From the NCBI RefSeq assembly GCF_044324785.1, contig NZ_CP172127.1: 64,000 nt of DNA. The stretch is one strand, 5' to 3'. Position 1 is the first letter of the stretch. Each line of letters opens with the position of its first letter. Below are positions 47,301 to 53,300 of this stretch, in pieces. Origin of the DNA: Escherichia coli. GTDB taxonomy: Bacteria > Pseudomonadota > Gammaproteobacteria > Enterobacterales > Enterobacteriaceae. Made by a program: the position numbers.

Positions 47301-50300
47301 AGTGGTAACCAACCTGAAGACGCCAGAGCAGGAAGTTGCTGCAAAACAGCAGTGGATTGCTGCGTTTGCCGAAGGGGGGATCCGAACCCGTGAACAGGTT
47401 TCTGCTGGTATGCGCCACGCCCGCGCCAGTGATTCTCCGTTCTGGCCGTCGCCAGGGCAATTCATCAAGTGGTGTAAAGACAGCAAGATGGTTCTTGGCG
47501 TCACCATTGACGATGTGATGGCGGAGTTTCACCGGTACAGCAAGGAAAAAAGTTTATATCCTGGTGGTCCCGAAAGATTCCCGTGGCGACATCAGGTTAT
47601 GTACTGGGTCGTATGTGATACCCGCCGTGCAATGTATCAGCGCCAGCTTAGCGAGATTGAGGTTGAGAAACACGCGCGCAGGCTGCTCGATGATTGGGCG
47701 AAAAAGGTGGCTTCCGGACAGCAGATACCCGATCCGGTGATCAGCATACAGGCAAAGCCAGAACCCATGAGTACGCCTCCGGACACAGGGAGAGACGTTT
47801 ACCATCCACCAGGGCGAAGTTTCGGGTGCATGCCTAACGCCGCCACCCTTGGGGGAATAACACCGGCGCAGTGGCTGATGGAGGAATACAGGCGGGGAAA
47901 GGCGTCAGGATTTATCAAGTAATACCAGCGCGATAGCGCATTTTTTTACGTCTCGATAATTACCTTAGAGGTAATAAAATATTCTAAAATCTATTGATTT
48001 CGTGTCTTATGTGGTTTTTAATTACCTAAGGGGTAAATCATGAGAAAACAGATGCAGGCTCTTGGTCGACTCAAAACAGGCCAGATGAACAAAACAGAAT
48101 CTGCGTATTGCCAGCACCTTGAGCTGCGTAAACGTGCAGGAGAAATCGTCTGGTATCGATTTGAGGGTATCAAGCTGCGGTTAGCTGACAACACGTTCTA
48201 TACGCCAGATTTTGCTGTGATGCTCGCCACCGGCGAGATGGAACTGCACGAAGTGAAAGGGGGATTCTGGACCGATGACGCCAGAGTGAAAACCAAAGTC
48301 GCCGCAGATCAGTATCCGTTCCGAATCATCGGGGTAACGGTTAAGCCAAAGAAAGCAGGTGGTGGCTGGAACATCGAAGAGTTCTGAATCGACGATCTTT
48401 TTAGTTATCAATGTAATCAATAAGTTATGTGGATAAGCGAGGGTAAAGATGGAAAGTAATATCAAAGGGTTAGTTGCCGCCGGGCATGAGATGGCTTCGG
48501 AACTGAAAGCAGAATGTGGTGCCGTTGATATGCGCAGTGTGGCAAAGCTGATCAGCGATTTGGCAACGCAACTGGAAGTGCAACTGGTGCGTGCTAATGC
48601 GCTGGCCGAAGACCAGCAGAAAGCGATTGAGTCAATTAAGCAGGCTGATTCGGCTGTTAAGTTGGCACACGAGAAGTTTTCGGAGCTGGCAGCGGAGAAT
48701 GCGAGACTGAAATCTGCGCACCCTCAACCATTCGGACCTGAGATGATGAAGGCTATTGATGCGTATGAGAAGTATCAGGATGAAGTGCCGGAGACTGGGA
48801 TGCTCAATGCATTTTTCATCTTGCGCGACAGTATCCGTGTTGACACCCCAGCCACCGAAGCATTCCTGGCTGAAGTACGGGCGCAGGGCGTGGAGATGGC
48901 TATGGAGCATATGCAGTCGAGCGGTTCGTTAACATTTGGAGATTGCTACATATCACTTAACGAGTTCGCCGCAGAGCTTCGCAAAGGAGGTAACCAGTGA
49001 GTGTATATCTCATTGATAAACGCCGGCGTGGGCAACAAATACCATCTGTTGAAATGCCGAATCACACATGGTTTTGCGTACTTGATATCGATGGTATGGA
49101 TGCGTTGGTTAACACTCGTCATTACTGCGATACCGCAACAGCTACTCCGGCGAAAGCAAAGAAAATGGCTGCTCTGATAGAAAACTGGACTCCACCTGAT
49201 GGTTGGTGCAATGGGAATGATCGAGATTGGCACGAAAAAATGAAGGGCTATATCTGCGATTTTTTACGTAAATGCAACGGCTTCAGGGTGATGTGATATG
49301 ACCAAAATTAACTATCAGGCACTGCGTGAGGCGGCAGAACGTGCAATTCCGGCAATGGAACGCCTGTTAATGTTGCCAGTTGATGATGATCTGATAAGCG
49401 AACAGGAACTTAAAGATTACGGTGTGGATATTGATGCGCTCAACGCCTTCAAATTTCTGGCCGGACCAGAAACCGTGCTGGCACTGCTGGATGAACGGGA
49501 AAGAAACCAGCAATACATAAAACGCCGCGACCAGGAGAACGAGGATATTGCGCTAACGGTAGGGAGGCTTCGCGTTGAGCTGGAAGGCAAAGACAGCAAA
49601 ATAGCCAATCTTACCGCCGAACGCGATGCTCTTCGTGAAGGTGAGATGGGCGACGCTAGGCATAGCAACACACGGGCCGCAGCTGATATCTACTTCCAAC
49701 TGGTCGAGGAGTGCGAAATTCCTGCTGGCGGATCTCTGGTCGAGTACGTTGACGATATGCGCGAGAAGCTGGAAGCCGCAGAGAAGCGCATTGCAGAGTT
49801 AGAAAGTGGTTCTCAGGCACAAAAGTTAGTTGAAGCAATCATTGTTGCGATAGAAAACGAACAGGAAAGGCTTTTTGATGAAGATTACCTAATGGATTCG
49901 AAAGAATGCATTGACGTAATTCGTGAAGAAGTAAAGCGATGGAATGATTCCCGTGCCGCTGGCATTCGCATCAAAGGAGAGTGAGATGGACGGACAAATA
50001 TCAATCGTTAGACCAGGAGCATGTGACGATCGCGAAATACGAATAATTATTCGTCTGGCAATGGGGAAAGCAATAACTGCTCTCATTACCCCAGAAAATC
50101 TCGCATTAGCATTAACAGGAAAGTCAGACCTGCCAGTAGAGCTAAAGCTGCGAAATGTTGAGATTAAGGTGAAATAGCTATGACCACTATTACCAAAGAA
50201 CGTATCGAATTATTCATTAAAAATCCTCTTGATAACGGGCTTACCCGTGGCGAACAAATGGAAGTGGCACGGATTGCACTGGCATCGCTGGAAGCAGAGC

Positions 50301-53300
50301 CAGTTATGTTCTGTATATCAGGACAAAATGTAGATTCAGAAGAACATGTATCAACCAGCAAAGCGGTTGTTGATGCCTGGGTTGAAGAATGGAATCAGGT
50401 TGACGGAAGTCCTGGCGAACCACTGTACAAAACTATGCCACTCTACTGTCACGCTACCTTGCCAGCGCCGGTAGTGCCTGAAGGACTGGTTAAAGCGGTG
50501 CGTTTTTATGAGCAGGTAAAAAATGAGAATCCGCCAGTTGGGACTGGTGCGTGGAAAGACGCTGTTGACTGGGTGCTCGAAGAGGCTTGCCAGGCTGTAA
50601 ATACAGACATCAAAGGATGAACGATATGGCAACCAACAATCGTAAAGCCAAGATGCTAATTTCCCGTGTATACAGACTTTGCTACCCCAGCCAGTGGTTG
50701 AGAGTTAGCAATCGCCGTGTGGTGTTGTTCTCATTTTCTGGAATTGCCAGAGAGGGAATCAAAGATAAGCGCAGCGCGGCGCAAAACCGCTGGAAAAACA
50801 ACTTGCGCACTAAAGGAGCCTAATATGGCTATTGCCGCAAGTTACACCATGCATCTCTACTGTGATTGTCGCCAGTGTACAAATGGTAAATATCAGTCGC
50901 CAGACTTCGGTGAGTATATCGGTACGTCATGGGCTGGCTGTGCAAAAGAAGCACGTAAAGATGGATGGCGAATAAGCGCCGACAAAACACGTGCTTTTGC
51001 GCCCGGACATAAAGTTTTGAGGATTAACAAATGACAACATTTACCGACGACGACAAGAAACTAATTAAAGAAATCAGGGAGCGAATCGGCAGCCTGGACG
51101 TGCGAGACAATATTGAGCGCCGGGCTTATGAAATTTCTCTGGCATCACTGGGAGCAGAACCTGTAAGCCAAACTTACAACTTGCCAGAATTAATCGAAGG
51201 CATGGAGGTTTCCATTGATGTAAGCACTTGTGATGCGGATTTAGGTAATCGCTATTTCGGTACCGTCACCGAGGCGTTAGAACTTGATACTGCCAAGAAT
51301 GGTTACATCCTCCTGGTTCAGGACGCAGAGCCAAACTTCGATGTAAATGGCAACTCTCCGGTAACTCCGGATGGTTGGATAAGCTGTAGTGAGCTAATGC
51401 CGGAAAAGAACCAGAACGTGCTTATTTCGGTGAATTTCGATAGCTCTCTGGTTGAACCGCTAATATGCTCCGCACGCTATACAGGAAGCACATTCCGGCG
51501 AGGAGAAGCAACGATTAAGCCGGGCAATGGTATTGAGCAAGCAACTCACTGGATGCCGCTACCGGAACCACCGCAGGAGGTTAACCGTGGCTAACCTGCA
51601 ACTTGCCGTCAAAGGTGAATACTTCGATGCCATGATTCGCGGAGAGAAAACGGAAGAGTATCGCCTGTGTAATGACTACTGGAATAAGCGAATCATGTTC
51701 CGGGAATATGACCGCCTGATTATCACAAAGGGATATCCGAAGCGCGACGACTTCAGTCGCAGAATTGACGTCCCGTATGACGGATATGAAATCAAGACAA
51801 TCACACATCCGCACTTCGGTGATAAACCGGTAAAGGTGTTCGCGATAAAGGTAAATATTGATGGCTAAATCAGCAGCAGAGCGCAAAGCCGCTCAGAGAG
51901 CCAGACAAGCTGCATCTGGTGTGCGTAAGCTGGAGATTGTGCTTGATGCTCAGGAAATTGAAATGCTGGAGCGTAACTGTGCCACGCGTCGCCCCGGGCG
52001 TGCGCCTTACGAATTTGGTGAGTATATAGCGTTACTGATCCGCCAGGATGATGCACGCGTGCACGGGCGTATAAAATCGATCAGCAGAAAACGTTGCGGT
52101 AAGTGCGGCGAGAGAGTTCCTGTAAATTCATGCCCGTGTAATGGTGACTCGCAATGCTGGGTGACTAAAGGCTGGCATGAAACGAAATTAATAGTGTGAC
52201 ATGTCACGAGTAGATTATGCATGATGAATTTGATGGGTTTTGAATACTGCCGCCAACTATGGCGGCTTTATTTTGCATGGTACTATTACCACAACGGTAA
52301 CTATTACCACGGTGGTTATGATGCCTGCTGAACCTAAAACCTATAAACGCAAATCAACGCAATTTAAGCCGCTCACAGCAATGCAGGAGGCTTATTGCCA
52401 GTCATACATCAAAACGCCTGAAAACCAGACTCAGGCAGCGATTAACGCAGGATTCTCCCCAAATACAGCGGCAGTTAAAGCCAGTGTCATGATGCGCGAT
52501 GAACGCATTCAAAAACGGATTGCCGAGTTGATGGAGGAGCGCAACAAACGAATGCGCGTCAGTGCTGATTACGTTCTCATGCGCTTGGTGGAGATCGACC
52601 AGATGGACGTGATCGATATCCTCAACGACGATGGGAGCCTTAAACCAATCCGTGAGTGGCCGAAAATCTGGCGCACTACGCTTAGTGGCTTTGATCTGTC
52701 ATCGACCATCATGAACATGAACGAGGATTCGATAGAGACAATCCTCAAAAAAATTAAATGGCCTGACAAGGTGAAGAACCTAGAACTGATTGGTAAGCAC
52801 GTCGACGTCAACGCATTCAAAGAACGCCTGGATGTTAATGTGAATGTGACAATTGCTGATCGCATAGCGGCAGCCAGGAAACGACTCAAAGAACGTCAGG
52901 ATGGTAATCAGTGACAGATGCAGCGTTATCTCCTGAAGAGCAGTTGATCGAGGATATTGCAGGGTTCACTCACGATCCGCTTGGCTATGCCCTCTATGCG
53001 TTCCCGTGGGGGGAAGAGGGGACTGAACTGGCACATGCCACCGGTCCACGTCAGTGGCAGGCTGATGCGTTCCGAGAGATACGTGATCACCTGCAGAATC
53101 CAGAGACGCGCTATCAGCCGCTTATGCTGGCACGCGCTTCTGGTCACGGTATTGGTAAATCCGCATTCATCTCAATGCTGATCAACTGGGGCATGTCCAC
53201 TTGCGAGGATTGTAAGGTCGTGGTGACCGCCAACACCGACAACCAGCTACGAACGAAGACCTGGCCGGAAATTATCAAGTGGTCGAACCTTGCTATCACG

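Follow-up and report, generated by a model that had tools for sequence, protein, structure and literature searches.

A mosaic block of Ea-type accessory genes between the replication and packaging genes of a phiV10/epsilon15-like prophage in Escherichia coli

Position of the block in the prophage

We analyzed a stretch of 64,000 nucleotides from the Escherichia coli contig NZ_CP172127.1 (assembly GCF_044324785.1), hereafter the window, and in it a block of eleven small open reading frames (ORFs) at 48040-52199. The block is a region of an already familiar type, an Ea-type accessory operon, in the form of a new mosaic of known families. It is likely the distal early-right accessory operon of an integrated prophage of the phiV10/epsilon15 type (genus Uetakevirus).

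The left flank consisted of xseA, guaB and guaA followed by a tyrosine integrase gene (38831-40081), with 97-98% identity to E. coli, and 364 complete E. coli genomes showed the same guaA-integrase-prophage layout. The published attB site of ZX5, phiV10 and epsilon15 lies at the 3′ end of guaA (PMC9782041), and this is also where the prophage of the window, with its tyrosine integrase, is located. Judged from its sequence, the window is an Escherichia chromosome carrying a phiV10/epsilon15-like prophage beside guaA.

The block is bordered on the left by a lambda-P-like replication gene (46325-47922, with Pfam DnaT and Phage_lambda_P matches) and on the right by the small terminase gene (52240-52914, phrog_51 TerS), the same layout as in phiV10 and epsilon15. 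These flanks bore out an earlier sequence-only reading, in which the region had been proposed to hold phage accessory genes, with replication genes on one side and packaging genes on the other. In megablast searches the block DNA matched phiV10, vB_EcoP_ZX5, O157 typing phages 9 and 10 and hundreds of further phages, and it matched 3,652 of 5,426 E. coli genomes piecewise. The maximum coverage of the block was 47% by any phage record and 55% by any E. coli genome.

Gene content

The region 48040-52199 was nearly filled by eleven ORFs on the + strand, of 63-228 amino acids (aa), as follows.

ORF1, 48040-48387, + strand: 115 aa; DUF1064 PD-(D/E)xK nuclease, predicted Holliday-junction resolvase; conserved left anchor
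ORF2, 48449-49000, + strand: 183 aa; Eae-like, in slot 2, highly divergent; phrog_492, E 6e-50
ORF3, 48997-49296, + strand: 99 aa, GTG start; DUF7739, optional cassette; Pfam PF24881, E 1.9e-20; phrog_1239
ORF4, 49298-49984, + strand: 228 aa; Ead/Ea22-like coiled coil; PF13935; phrog_250, E 6e-62
ORF5, 49986-50177, + strand: 63 aa; rare cassette; phrog_1222, E 3.6e-39 over residues 15-77 of a longer ORF
ORF6, 50180-50620, + strand: 146 aa; three-module Ea-type protein; phrog_660
ORF7, 50617-50823, + strand: 68 aa, basic; phrog_1380; ATGA overlap with ORF6
ORF8, 50825-51034, + strand: 69 aa, Cys-containing; phrog_926, E 7.9e-36
ORF9, 51031-51594, + strand: 187 aa; N-terminal module (N-module), middle module and C-terminal DUF551; phrog_60
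ORF10, 51587-51868, + strand: 93 aa, GTG start; ASCH-like; phrog_625, E 9e-50
ORF11, 51861-52199, + strand: 112 aa; probable ribbon-helix-helix and Cys4 zinc-ribbon transcriptional regulator; right anchor; phrog_536 'transcriptional regulator'

The ORF calls thus agreed with the number and size range given before for these packed or overlapping ORFs. Neighbouring ORFs overlapped by 4-8 nt (ATGA, GTGA) or were separated by 1-2 nt, and the sole larger gap, 61 nt, followed ORF1. All eleven had PHROG matches, with E values of 1e-31 to 1e-62. Six ORFs could be compared gap-free across relatives, and in these the variable sites were concentrated at the third codon positions of the + frame. Variation at codon positions 1, 2 and 3 was 25, 12 and 55 for ORF10, 21, 14 and 59 for ORF11, 2, 3 and 21 for ORF1, and 5, 5 and 24 for ORF8; therefore, the tested ORFs are genes under purifying selection.

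Two ORFs on the minus strand, 49417-49671 (opposite the Ea22-like ORF4) and 51581-51886 (opposite ORF10), matched the PHROG families 13760 and 20945. It is highly improbable that some of the small ORFs are chance ORFs or that true genes lie on the minus strand: the PHROG matches of the + strand ORFs were strong throughout, the coupled start/stop junctions favour + strand genes, and the variation opposite ORF10 fell on the first codon position of the minus-strand ORF, which is the third position of the + frame. Both minus-strand ORFs were rejected as shadow ORFs, the codon-position test having been made for the one opposite ORF10. Mis-calling of shadow ORFs in deposited phage genomes is the probable origin of the two PHROG families.

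ORF1 matched Pfam PF06356 (DUF1064) with 26.4 bits, above the cutoff of 24.7 (E 9.5e-6), as had been suggested for one ORF of the block, and it matched phrog_190 'Holliday junction resolvase' with E 1e-43. The block had also been described as free of any nuclease signature, which was wrong, for the ORF1 translation shows the PD...ExK motif as TPDF (D56) and HEVKG (E69, K71). DUF1064 was placed among the PD-(D/E)XK nucleases by Kosinski et al. (PMC1189080). In epsilon15 the corresponding slot, right after the same operator pair, is occupied by a RuvC-type Holliday junction resolvase, and we read the two genes as a possible non-orthologous replacement of one junction-processing nuclease by another. 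ORF1 would resolve branched replication and recombination intermediates ahead of packaging, and may correspond in role to Rap/NinG or RusA of the lambda nin region. SPP1 G44P does not belong to the DUF1064 resolvases but is RusA-like.

For ORF2, homologues in phiV10 and E. coli carry the annotation eae-like. ORF4 matched PF13935 with 98.2 bits (E 7.9e-28) over residues 3-169, that is, the N-terminal segment and the coiled coil; a PDB sequence search at E up to 1 gave no match of its C-terminal part to the lambda Ea22 C-terminal domain solved by nuclear magnetic resonance. Variable C-terminal domains are typical of the Ead/Ea22 family (PMC10834534). ORF6 was divided into an N-module (aa 1-42, 50180-50305), a variable middle (aa 43 to about 95) and a C-terminal helical part (aa about 98 to 146), and ORF9 into an N-module (aa 1-45, 51031-51165), a middle module and DUF551 (aa 115-182). 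The DUF551 match of ORF9 to PF04448 covered the full-length profile (1-68 of 68) at residues 115-182, with 75 bits and E 8.9e-21.

ORF10 had been called ASCH-like. The name is carried by RefSeq proteins 97% identical to it, but the match to the Pfam ASCH profile (PF04266) covered only 23 residues and, with 13.8 bits, stayed below the cutoff of 21.2. PDB sequence searches with ORF1, ORF2, ORF4, ORF9, ORF10 and ORF11 found no relatives. As families, the members of the block are ordinary for an Ea region (Eae, Ead/Ea22, DUF7739, DUF551 and others), although their functions are mostly not established.

Putative operators and terminators

The following signals were found on both sides of the block and elsewhere in the prophage.

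47928-47947, + strand: hairpin GCGC-GATA-GCGC with T7 (GCGCGATAGCGC then seven T), terminator-like, after the stop codon of the P-like gene (47920-47922)
47953-47980, + strand: promoter-like TCGATA-16-TAAAAT, with the palindrome TTACCTTAGAGGTAA (47960-47974) in its spacer
48022-48036, + strand: palindrome TTACCTAAGGGGTAA, over the ribosome-binding site of ORF1, 62 bp beyond TTACCTTAGAGGTAA
52249-52274, + strand: hairpin GCCGCCA-ACTA-TGGCGGC with TTTATTTT, terminator-like with T-rich tail, after ORF11
52286-52318, + strand: palindromes TTACCACAACGGTAA and TTACCACGGTGGTTA, just before the small-terminase ATG, at the start of the next, late unit
38774, 44855, 44917, 45629, 45677, 46014, 47960, 48022, 52286 (plus 52304) and 55431: 15-bp palindromes TTACC-N5-GGTAA

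The palindrome TTACC-N5-GGTAA occurred at ten places in the window, all intergenic and within the prophage, giving 20 strand matches against 0.52 expected and at most 4 in any shuffle. The repressor gene had two on either side, and a single one followed the cro-like gene. A pair lay before the block, one with a degenerate copy before the terminase gene, one before the next late genes, and one near the integrase gene. The spacer between the P-like gene and the DUF1064 gene held exactly two palindromes in 59 of 59 related loci, in which the arms were invariant and the central five bases free; the two before the terminase gene were present in 80 of 81 related loci, with an annotated epsilon15 repressor site at 12-27. 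We found zero sites of the palindrome in 210 kb of related block sequence.

The RefSeq record of epsilon15 annotates ATTACC-N5-GGTAAT as repressor-binding, including one site directly before the equivalent block. By this annotation, the palindromes are candidate repressor sites and a known rather than a new feature. The N-terminal helix-turn-helix part of the repressor is its best-conserved part between the phage of the window and epsilon15, which fits the operators shared with epsilon15. A palindrome precedes every transcription unit, the late units included, and the candidate binders are the repressor and ORF11.

The hairpin before the block folded at -8.4 kcal/mol (z -2.8), and in phiV10 this same sequence carries the annotation of a putative rho-independent terminator. 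The hairpin after ORF11 folded at -16.2 kcal/mol (z -4.1), and epsilon15 has an annotated rho-independent terminator at the equivalent place. Within the block we found no promoter-like sites on the + strand, and repeat searches there returned the operator pair only. The Rfam scan of 44000-56000 gave tRNA and no other RNA family, and a 12-bp palindrome GTGACATGTCAC at 52196 had a frequency no higher than chance.

From these signals and the gene junctions, we infer that the block is probably one operator-controlled, translationally coupled early operon. It would be silent in the lysogen, and would be transcribed as a single coupled unit after induction or infection.

Conserved ends and variable interior among relatives

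With ORF11 as probe we collected 80 related loci, and from these and annotated loci 60 blocks were delimited between DUF1064 and the regulator. Fifty-eight of the 60 block sequences were unique. Their lengths ranged from 2,290 to 5,005 bp (4,160 bp in the window), each contained 6-13 ORFs, and 73 protein families were distinguished overall at 70% mutual coverage.

The two ends were present in every block, DUF1064 with at least 95% identity in all but one (74%) and the ORF11-type regulator likewise with at least 95% in all but one (86%). An Eae-like gene was found in 56 of 60, always in second place, with 29-100% identity, and an ASCH-like gene in 40 of 60. Every other family was found in at most 11 blocks: DUF7739 in 10, the ORF7/ORF8 pair in about 10, and ORF5 in 4. 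Corresponding ORFs also vary between members of the phage group according to the ZX5 paper (PMC9782041). The region is a cassette site between fixed anchors, and the window is one more combination of known cassettes. The block had been taken for accessory throughout, which holds for its interior, whereas ORF1 and ORF11 are near-invariant core genes, present in 60 of 60 relatives.

The interior (48449-51594) would encode non-essential Ea-type proteins (Eae, DUF7739, Ead/Ea22, DUF551 and small ORFs), and these proteins appear to be assembled from mini-domains (about 45-60 aa) with conserved and often proline-rich linkers between them. For annotators, the first and last genes have core functions, as nuclease and regulator, and between them each phage has its own gene set. 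The practical value is limited, and the block needs no new category, being the standard accessory operon of a very common type of E. coli prophage.

Shared N-terminus and exchange of modules

ORF6 and ORF9 had been noticed to share an N-terminal motif in front of different C-termini. In pairwise BLASTP they matched by ISLASLGAEPV / IALASLEAEPV alone (9 of 11 identities, E 0.013), and both matched the same PHROG profiles over residues 1-50. A hidden Markov model (HMM) seeded with the two N-termini found the N-module in 54 of 60 blocks with E values of 1e-15 to 1e-24 (1e-22 for ORF9), once in 50 blocks and twice in 4, the window being among the 4. The carriers were 123-410 aa long and showed 17 C-terminal architectures, so the shared N-terminus with exchanged C-termini is general in this group. 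Partners of the N-module included DUF551, the PF04447 dATP/dGTP pyrophosphohydrolase domain and several modules without a Pfam match. It was also found as stand-alone proteins of about 86-99 aa; a short-query homologue search gave proteins below 100 aa only, and these were excluded from the architecture counts.

Only the ends of the N-module were conserved, namely the first five codons, MTT(I/F)T, and the last eleven or so, (I)ALASLEAEPV. The middle, 25-45 residues, fell into about ten unrelated subtypes of differing lengths. We compared codons between subtypes, with one representative per N-subtype, in columns that had the same amino acid. The codon identity was 0.78-1.00 at the start and 0.62-1.00 over L-A-S-L-E-A, against 0.18-0.51 expected from the codon usage of the blocks; therefore, the ends of the N-module are conserved as DNA.

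The N-subtypes and the modules behind them were combined almost freely: nine to ten N-types and 19 downstream types occurred in 31 combinations, including seven quadruples with all four combinations present. The motif AYIFKHPAG was found downstream of at least six N-subtypes and the DUF550-type REQIRHEHAKWS downstream of three. In the alignment of ORF6 homologues three parts were swapped independently, with boundaries at AEPV and (Y)xAPPAPVVPEG, and the C-terminal part of ORF6 recurred behind Ead/Ea22 N-termini and in front of DUF551. Further recurrent linkers were NACRAAMLQG, GNSPVTPDGW(IS) and WMPLPEPPQEVNRG. By single-linkage clustering the Ea22-, ORF6- and ORF9-type proteins merged into one network of 100 proteins.

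The simplest reading of these alignments is that the shared N-terminus is a cassette at the gene start that is exchanged widely and seems to behave as a recombination junction. The module ends ATGACCACTATTACC and CTGGCATCGCTGGAAGCAGAACC, the latter encoding LASLEAEP, would act as short homology patches, and recombination at these patches would exchange the modules upstream and downstream of them, plausibly through the RecT/PD-(D/E)XK exonuclease pair that the prophage encodes at 42685-44384. This RecT/DUF3799 pair is a likely agent of the block mosaicism. Rad52-like recombinases use short, imperfect homology at the mosaic boundaries of temperate phages. As candidate crossover linkers we propose the gene start ATGACCACTATTACC, the junction at LASLEAEP, PPAPVVPE, GNSPVTPDGW and PLPEPPQEVNRG.

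The sequence-only reading had instead seen in the shared N-terminus a common interaction module. As such it would serve protein interaction or oligomerization and bring different C-terminal effectors to the same partner. We regard this as the less likely explanation, although it is compatible with a recombination junction. The N-module is near-universal, mostly in one copy per block, is predicted as two helices (H6-14 and H23-38), also stands alone as small proteins, and its C-terminal motif is conserved at the protein level. But conservation of no more than the first 5 or so and the last 11 or so residues, with ten or so unrelated middles between them, suits one shared binding surface poorly; the ends are conserved at synonymous sites too and coincide with candidate crossover points, and the terminal half-motif recurs inside some Ea22-like proteins as an inter-domain linker. 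The AlphaFold2 model of ORF6, from a 38-sequence alignment, was also of low confidence, with a predicted local distance difference test (pLDDT) score of 60 overall and 49-63 over the N-module, and Foldseek found no PDB match to it at E 0.001 or better.

Taken further, the recombination junction leads to a bolder proposal, which we hold to be improbable as a whole: the Ea-type genes would form a combinatorial library of mini-domains, whose linker DNA is kept as RecT/exonuclease crossover sites, so that host-targeting (possibly counter-defence) effectors are reshuffled domain by domain. If the linker patches are true selected recombination sites, they would illustrate clearly how phage accessory proteins can be shuffled at the level of domains. 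The DUF551/Ea22-type proteins can be described as chains of exchangeable mini-domains, and their conserved linkers explain the spurious 'paralogy' of neighbouring genes.

ORF11 and the late boundary

ORF11 was 100% identical to p55 of phiV10 and 78% identical to gp49 of epsilon15. The family is small, an exhaustive search giving 152 representative clusters. Its alignment showed a basic N-terminal helix and two invariant cysteines (C79 and C82), with C99 present in at least 90% of the sequences, and the AlphaFold model was confident (pLDDT 92).

ORF11 directly precedes the terminator-like hairpin, two operator-like palindromes and the terminase gene. Two distant homologues with 35-38% identity (L084, 4001-4363; L085, 4001-4387) were found in unrelated prophage-like contigs. 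Both end the early gene row, a few genes downstream of an integrase-family gene, and are closely followed by the terminase genes and, in one case, also by a recognizable holin gene.

Because ORF11 stands at the early/late boundary here and in these distant relatives, it may control the following late operon, a suggestion that we make with some reserve. An antiterminator like lambda Q was also considered, since a promoter-like site and a hairpin follow ORF11, and was rejected: the fold looks ribbon-helix-helix-like and no Q structure was matched.

The segment after ORF11 (52196-52330) contains the promoter-like GTGACA-18-CATGAT, the hairpin at 52249-52274, the two palindromes and an ATG at 52318. 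The order of promoter and hairpin resembles lambda PR′-tR′, while ORF11 is not Q-like. The small-terminase TTG start at 52240, given in the ORF list and in RefSeq, would put the hairpin and the operators inside the gene, and the PHROG terminase match begins only at residue 29; therefore, the true start is probably 52318 or 52321.

Possible role of the encoded proteins

The lambda Ea22 protein is a tetrameric coiled coil with a pro-lysogenic effect and with variable C-terminal domains, one variant being DUF551 (PMC10834534; see also PMC7093339). Because lambda Ea22 is pro-lysogenic and loss of the DUF551 protein YfdS is linked to H2O2 sensitivity, we rank first a role of the interior proteins in host physiology or the lysis-lysogeny decision; by this analogy they most likely modulate one or the other through protein binding. 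Counter-defence ranks as a weaker explanation, and prophage-expressed defence or conversion as an unlikely one.

For counter-defence, the interior would be an anti-defence or host-takeover set diversified by an arms race with host defence. It is hypervariable between near-identical anchors, with nearly all blocks unique and dozens of families, it is placed early, it encodes small proteins without assigned function, and in some variants a dATP/dGTP pyrophosphohydrolase domain or a methyltransferase occupies the same slot. But in the libraries and literature searched no family of the block has demonstrated anti-defence activity, and lambda Ea22, the best-studied relative, is described as pro-lysogenic (PMC10834534). 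We therefore hold the anti-defence set to be rather unlikely.

A defence system had not been recognized in the block by the sequence-only reading, and the PADLOC-DB 2.0 profiles agreed: ten ORFs (all but the 68-aa ORF7) gave no matches except ORF10 to mREase_II, which was marginal (E 0.0055, 13.9 bits), and the block was not assigned to the known anti-phage defence systems. PADLOC covers defence systems, not anti-defence. The NCBIfam scan of the block returned nothing useful. Accessory regions of prophages do sometimes contain morons or conversion genes, and cells without YfdS, which belongs to the cryptic prophage CPS-53, were reported to be sensitive to H2O2. But several observations speak against a moron or lysogenic-conversion role, in which the prophage would express these genes to the host's advantage, and against a defence system encoded by the prophage: the single and marginal PADLOC match in the ASCH region, the translational coupling of genes that have operators and a terminator upstream and no + strand promoter-like site among them, and the ZX5 lysogen, which showed no phenotype change (PMC9782041). 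Such an explanation is very unlikely.

Several points weigh against the reading of the block as an operator-controlled accessory operon with exchanged modules. The hairpin at 47928-47947 has a weak stem of only 4 bp, and the promoter-like hexamers score 9 of 12, which is at chance level (9 found, 12.6 expected from shuffled sequence). The palindromes could bind another factor than the repressor, and the argument for late control by ORF11 is one of position. High synonymous identity at the module ends might stem from their recent common ancestry and not from selection for recombination. The prediction of ORF1 as a Holliday-junction resolvase draws on the phrog_190 label, the motif and positional analogy.

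Other features of the prophage

Inside the DnaT-like initiator gene, 46630-46761 contains units of 18, 24 and 12 bp repeated in tandem, with 100% identity of the 24-bp unit over 2.6 copies. They encode a repetitive PKNGMLND stretch and look like origin iterons in an initiator gene, as in lambda O.

The early-left operon (40115-44695, minus strand) was read by comparison with a near-identical prophage of E. coli DETEC-S566. It encodes an AntA/AntB-type antirepressor, an MT-A70 methyltransferase, a PerC-family regulator, RecT and the DUF3799 PD-(D/E)XK exonuclease.

Between the large terminase and portal genes, 54477-55108 (minus strand) contains a Gp49-family gene (phrog_322) and tRNA-Arg(TCT). 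This insertion has its own terminator-like hairpins, is followed by the operator-like palindrome at 55431, and is also present in related E. coli prophages. Upstream of xseA and guaBA, an ORF of 2,679 aa (25916-33955) corresponds to an adhesion-domain protein of the E. coli chromosome; it is a host gene unrelated to the prophage.

Comparison with known systems

The closest systems are phiV10 (p45-p55) and epsilon15 (gp43-gp49), where the block likewise follows the DnaT-like and P-like genes and precedes the small terminase. They share the layout of repressor, cro-like gene, DnaT-like initiator, lambda-P-like protein, block and terminase, and the order within the block, namely junction-resolving nuclease, Eae, Ead/Ea22, small ORFs, DUF551-type protein and gp49/p55 regulator. 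Their operator palindromes and flanking terminators also match those of the window. The phiV10 counterparts of ORF1, ORF8, ORF10 and ORF11 are 96-100% identical (97% for ORF8 to p52 and for ORF10 to p54, 'ASCH domain-containing protein'), and ORF7 matches phiV10 DNA at about 90% over 88% of its length.

In contrast, only 41% of the DNA is common with phiV10, which has no counterpart of ORF3, ORF5, ORF6 and ORF9 and only 39-47% identity in ORF2 and ORF4. Epsilon15 has the RuvC-type resolvase in place of DUF1064, and a homologue of ORF10 was not detectable in it. The window differs from most relatives in having two N-module genes instead of one.

The lambda nin and exo-xis (Ea) regions and the P22 ea region are alike in having non-essential early genes between core modules and extreme mosaicism. 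Lambda-type regions also include a junction resolvase (Rap/NinG, RusA). Unlike lambda, the phage of the window is a podovirus of the epsilon15 group. The lambda Ea genes are in a leftward operon between exo and xis, whereas the block of the window is downstream of the replication genes, and at its late boundary stands a probable ribbon-helix-helix and zinc-ribbon regulator, not a lambda-type Q antiterminator.

The mosaic boundaries attributed to Rad52-like recombinases are similar in that short conserved DNA patches edge the modules and a RecT/exonuclease pair is encoded by the same phage. They differ in that several of the proposed junctions of the window lie inside genes, at inter-domain linkers, so that domains and not whole genes would be swapped. 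For the Ea22 family, coiled coils with swapped C-terminal domains and DUF551 as a portable domain have been described (PMC10834534). Domain-level shuffling at conserved linker DNA would extend this published mosaicism and overturns nothing in it.

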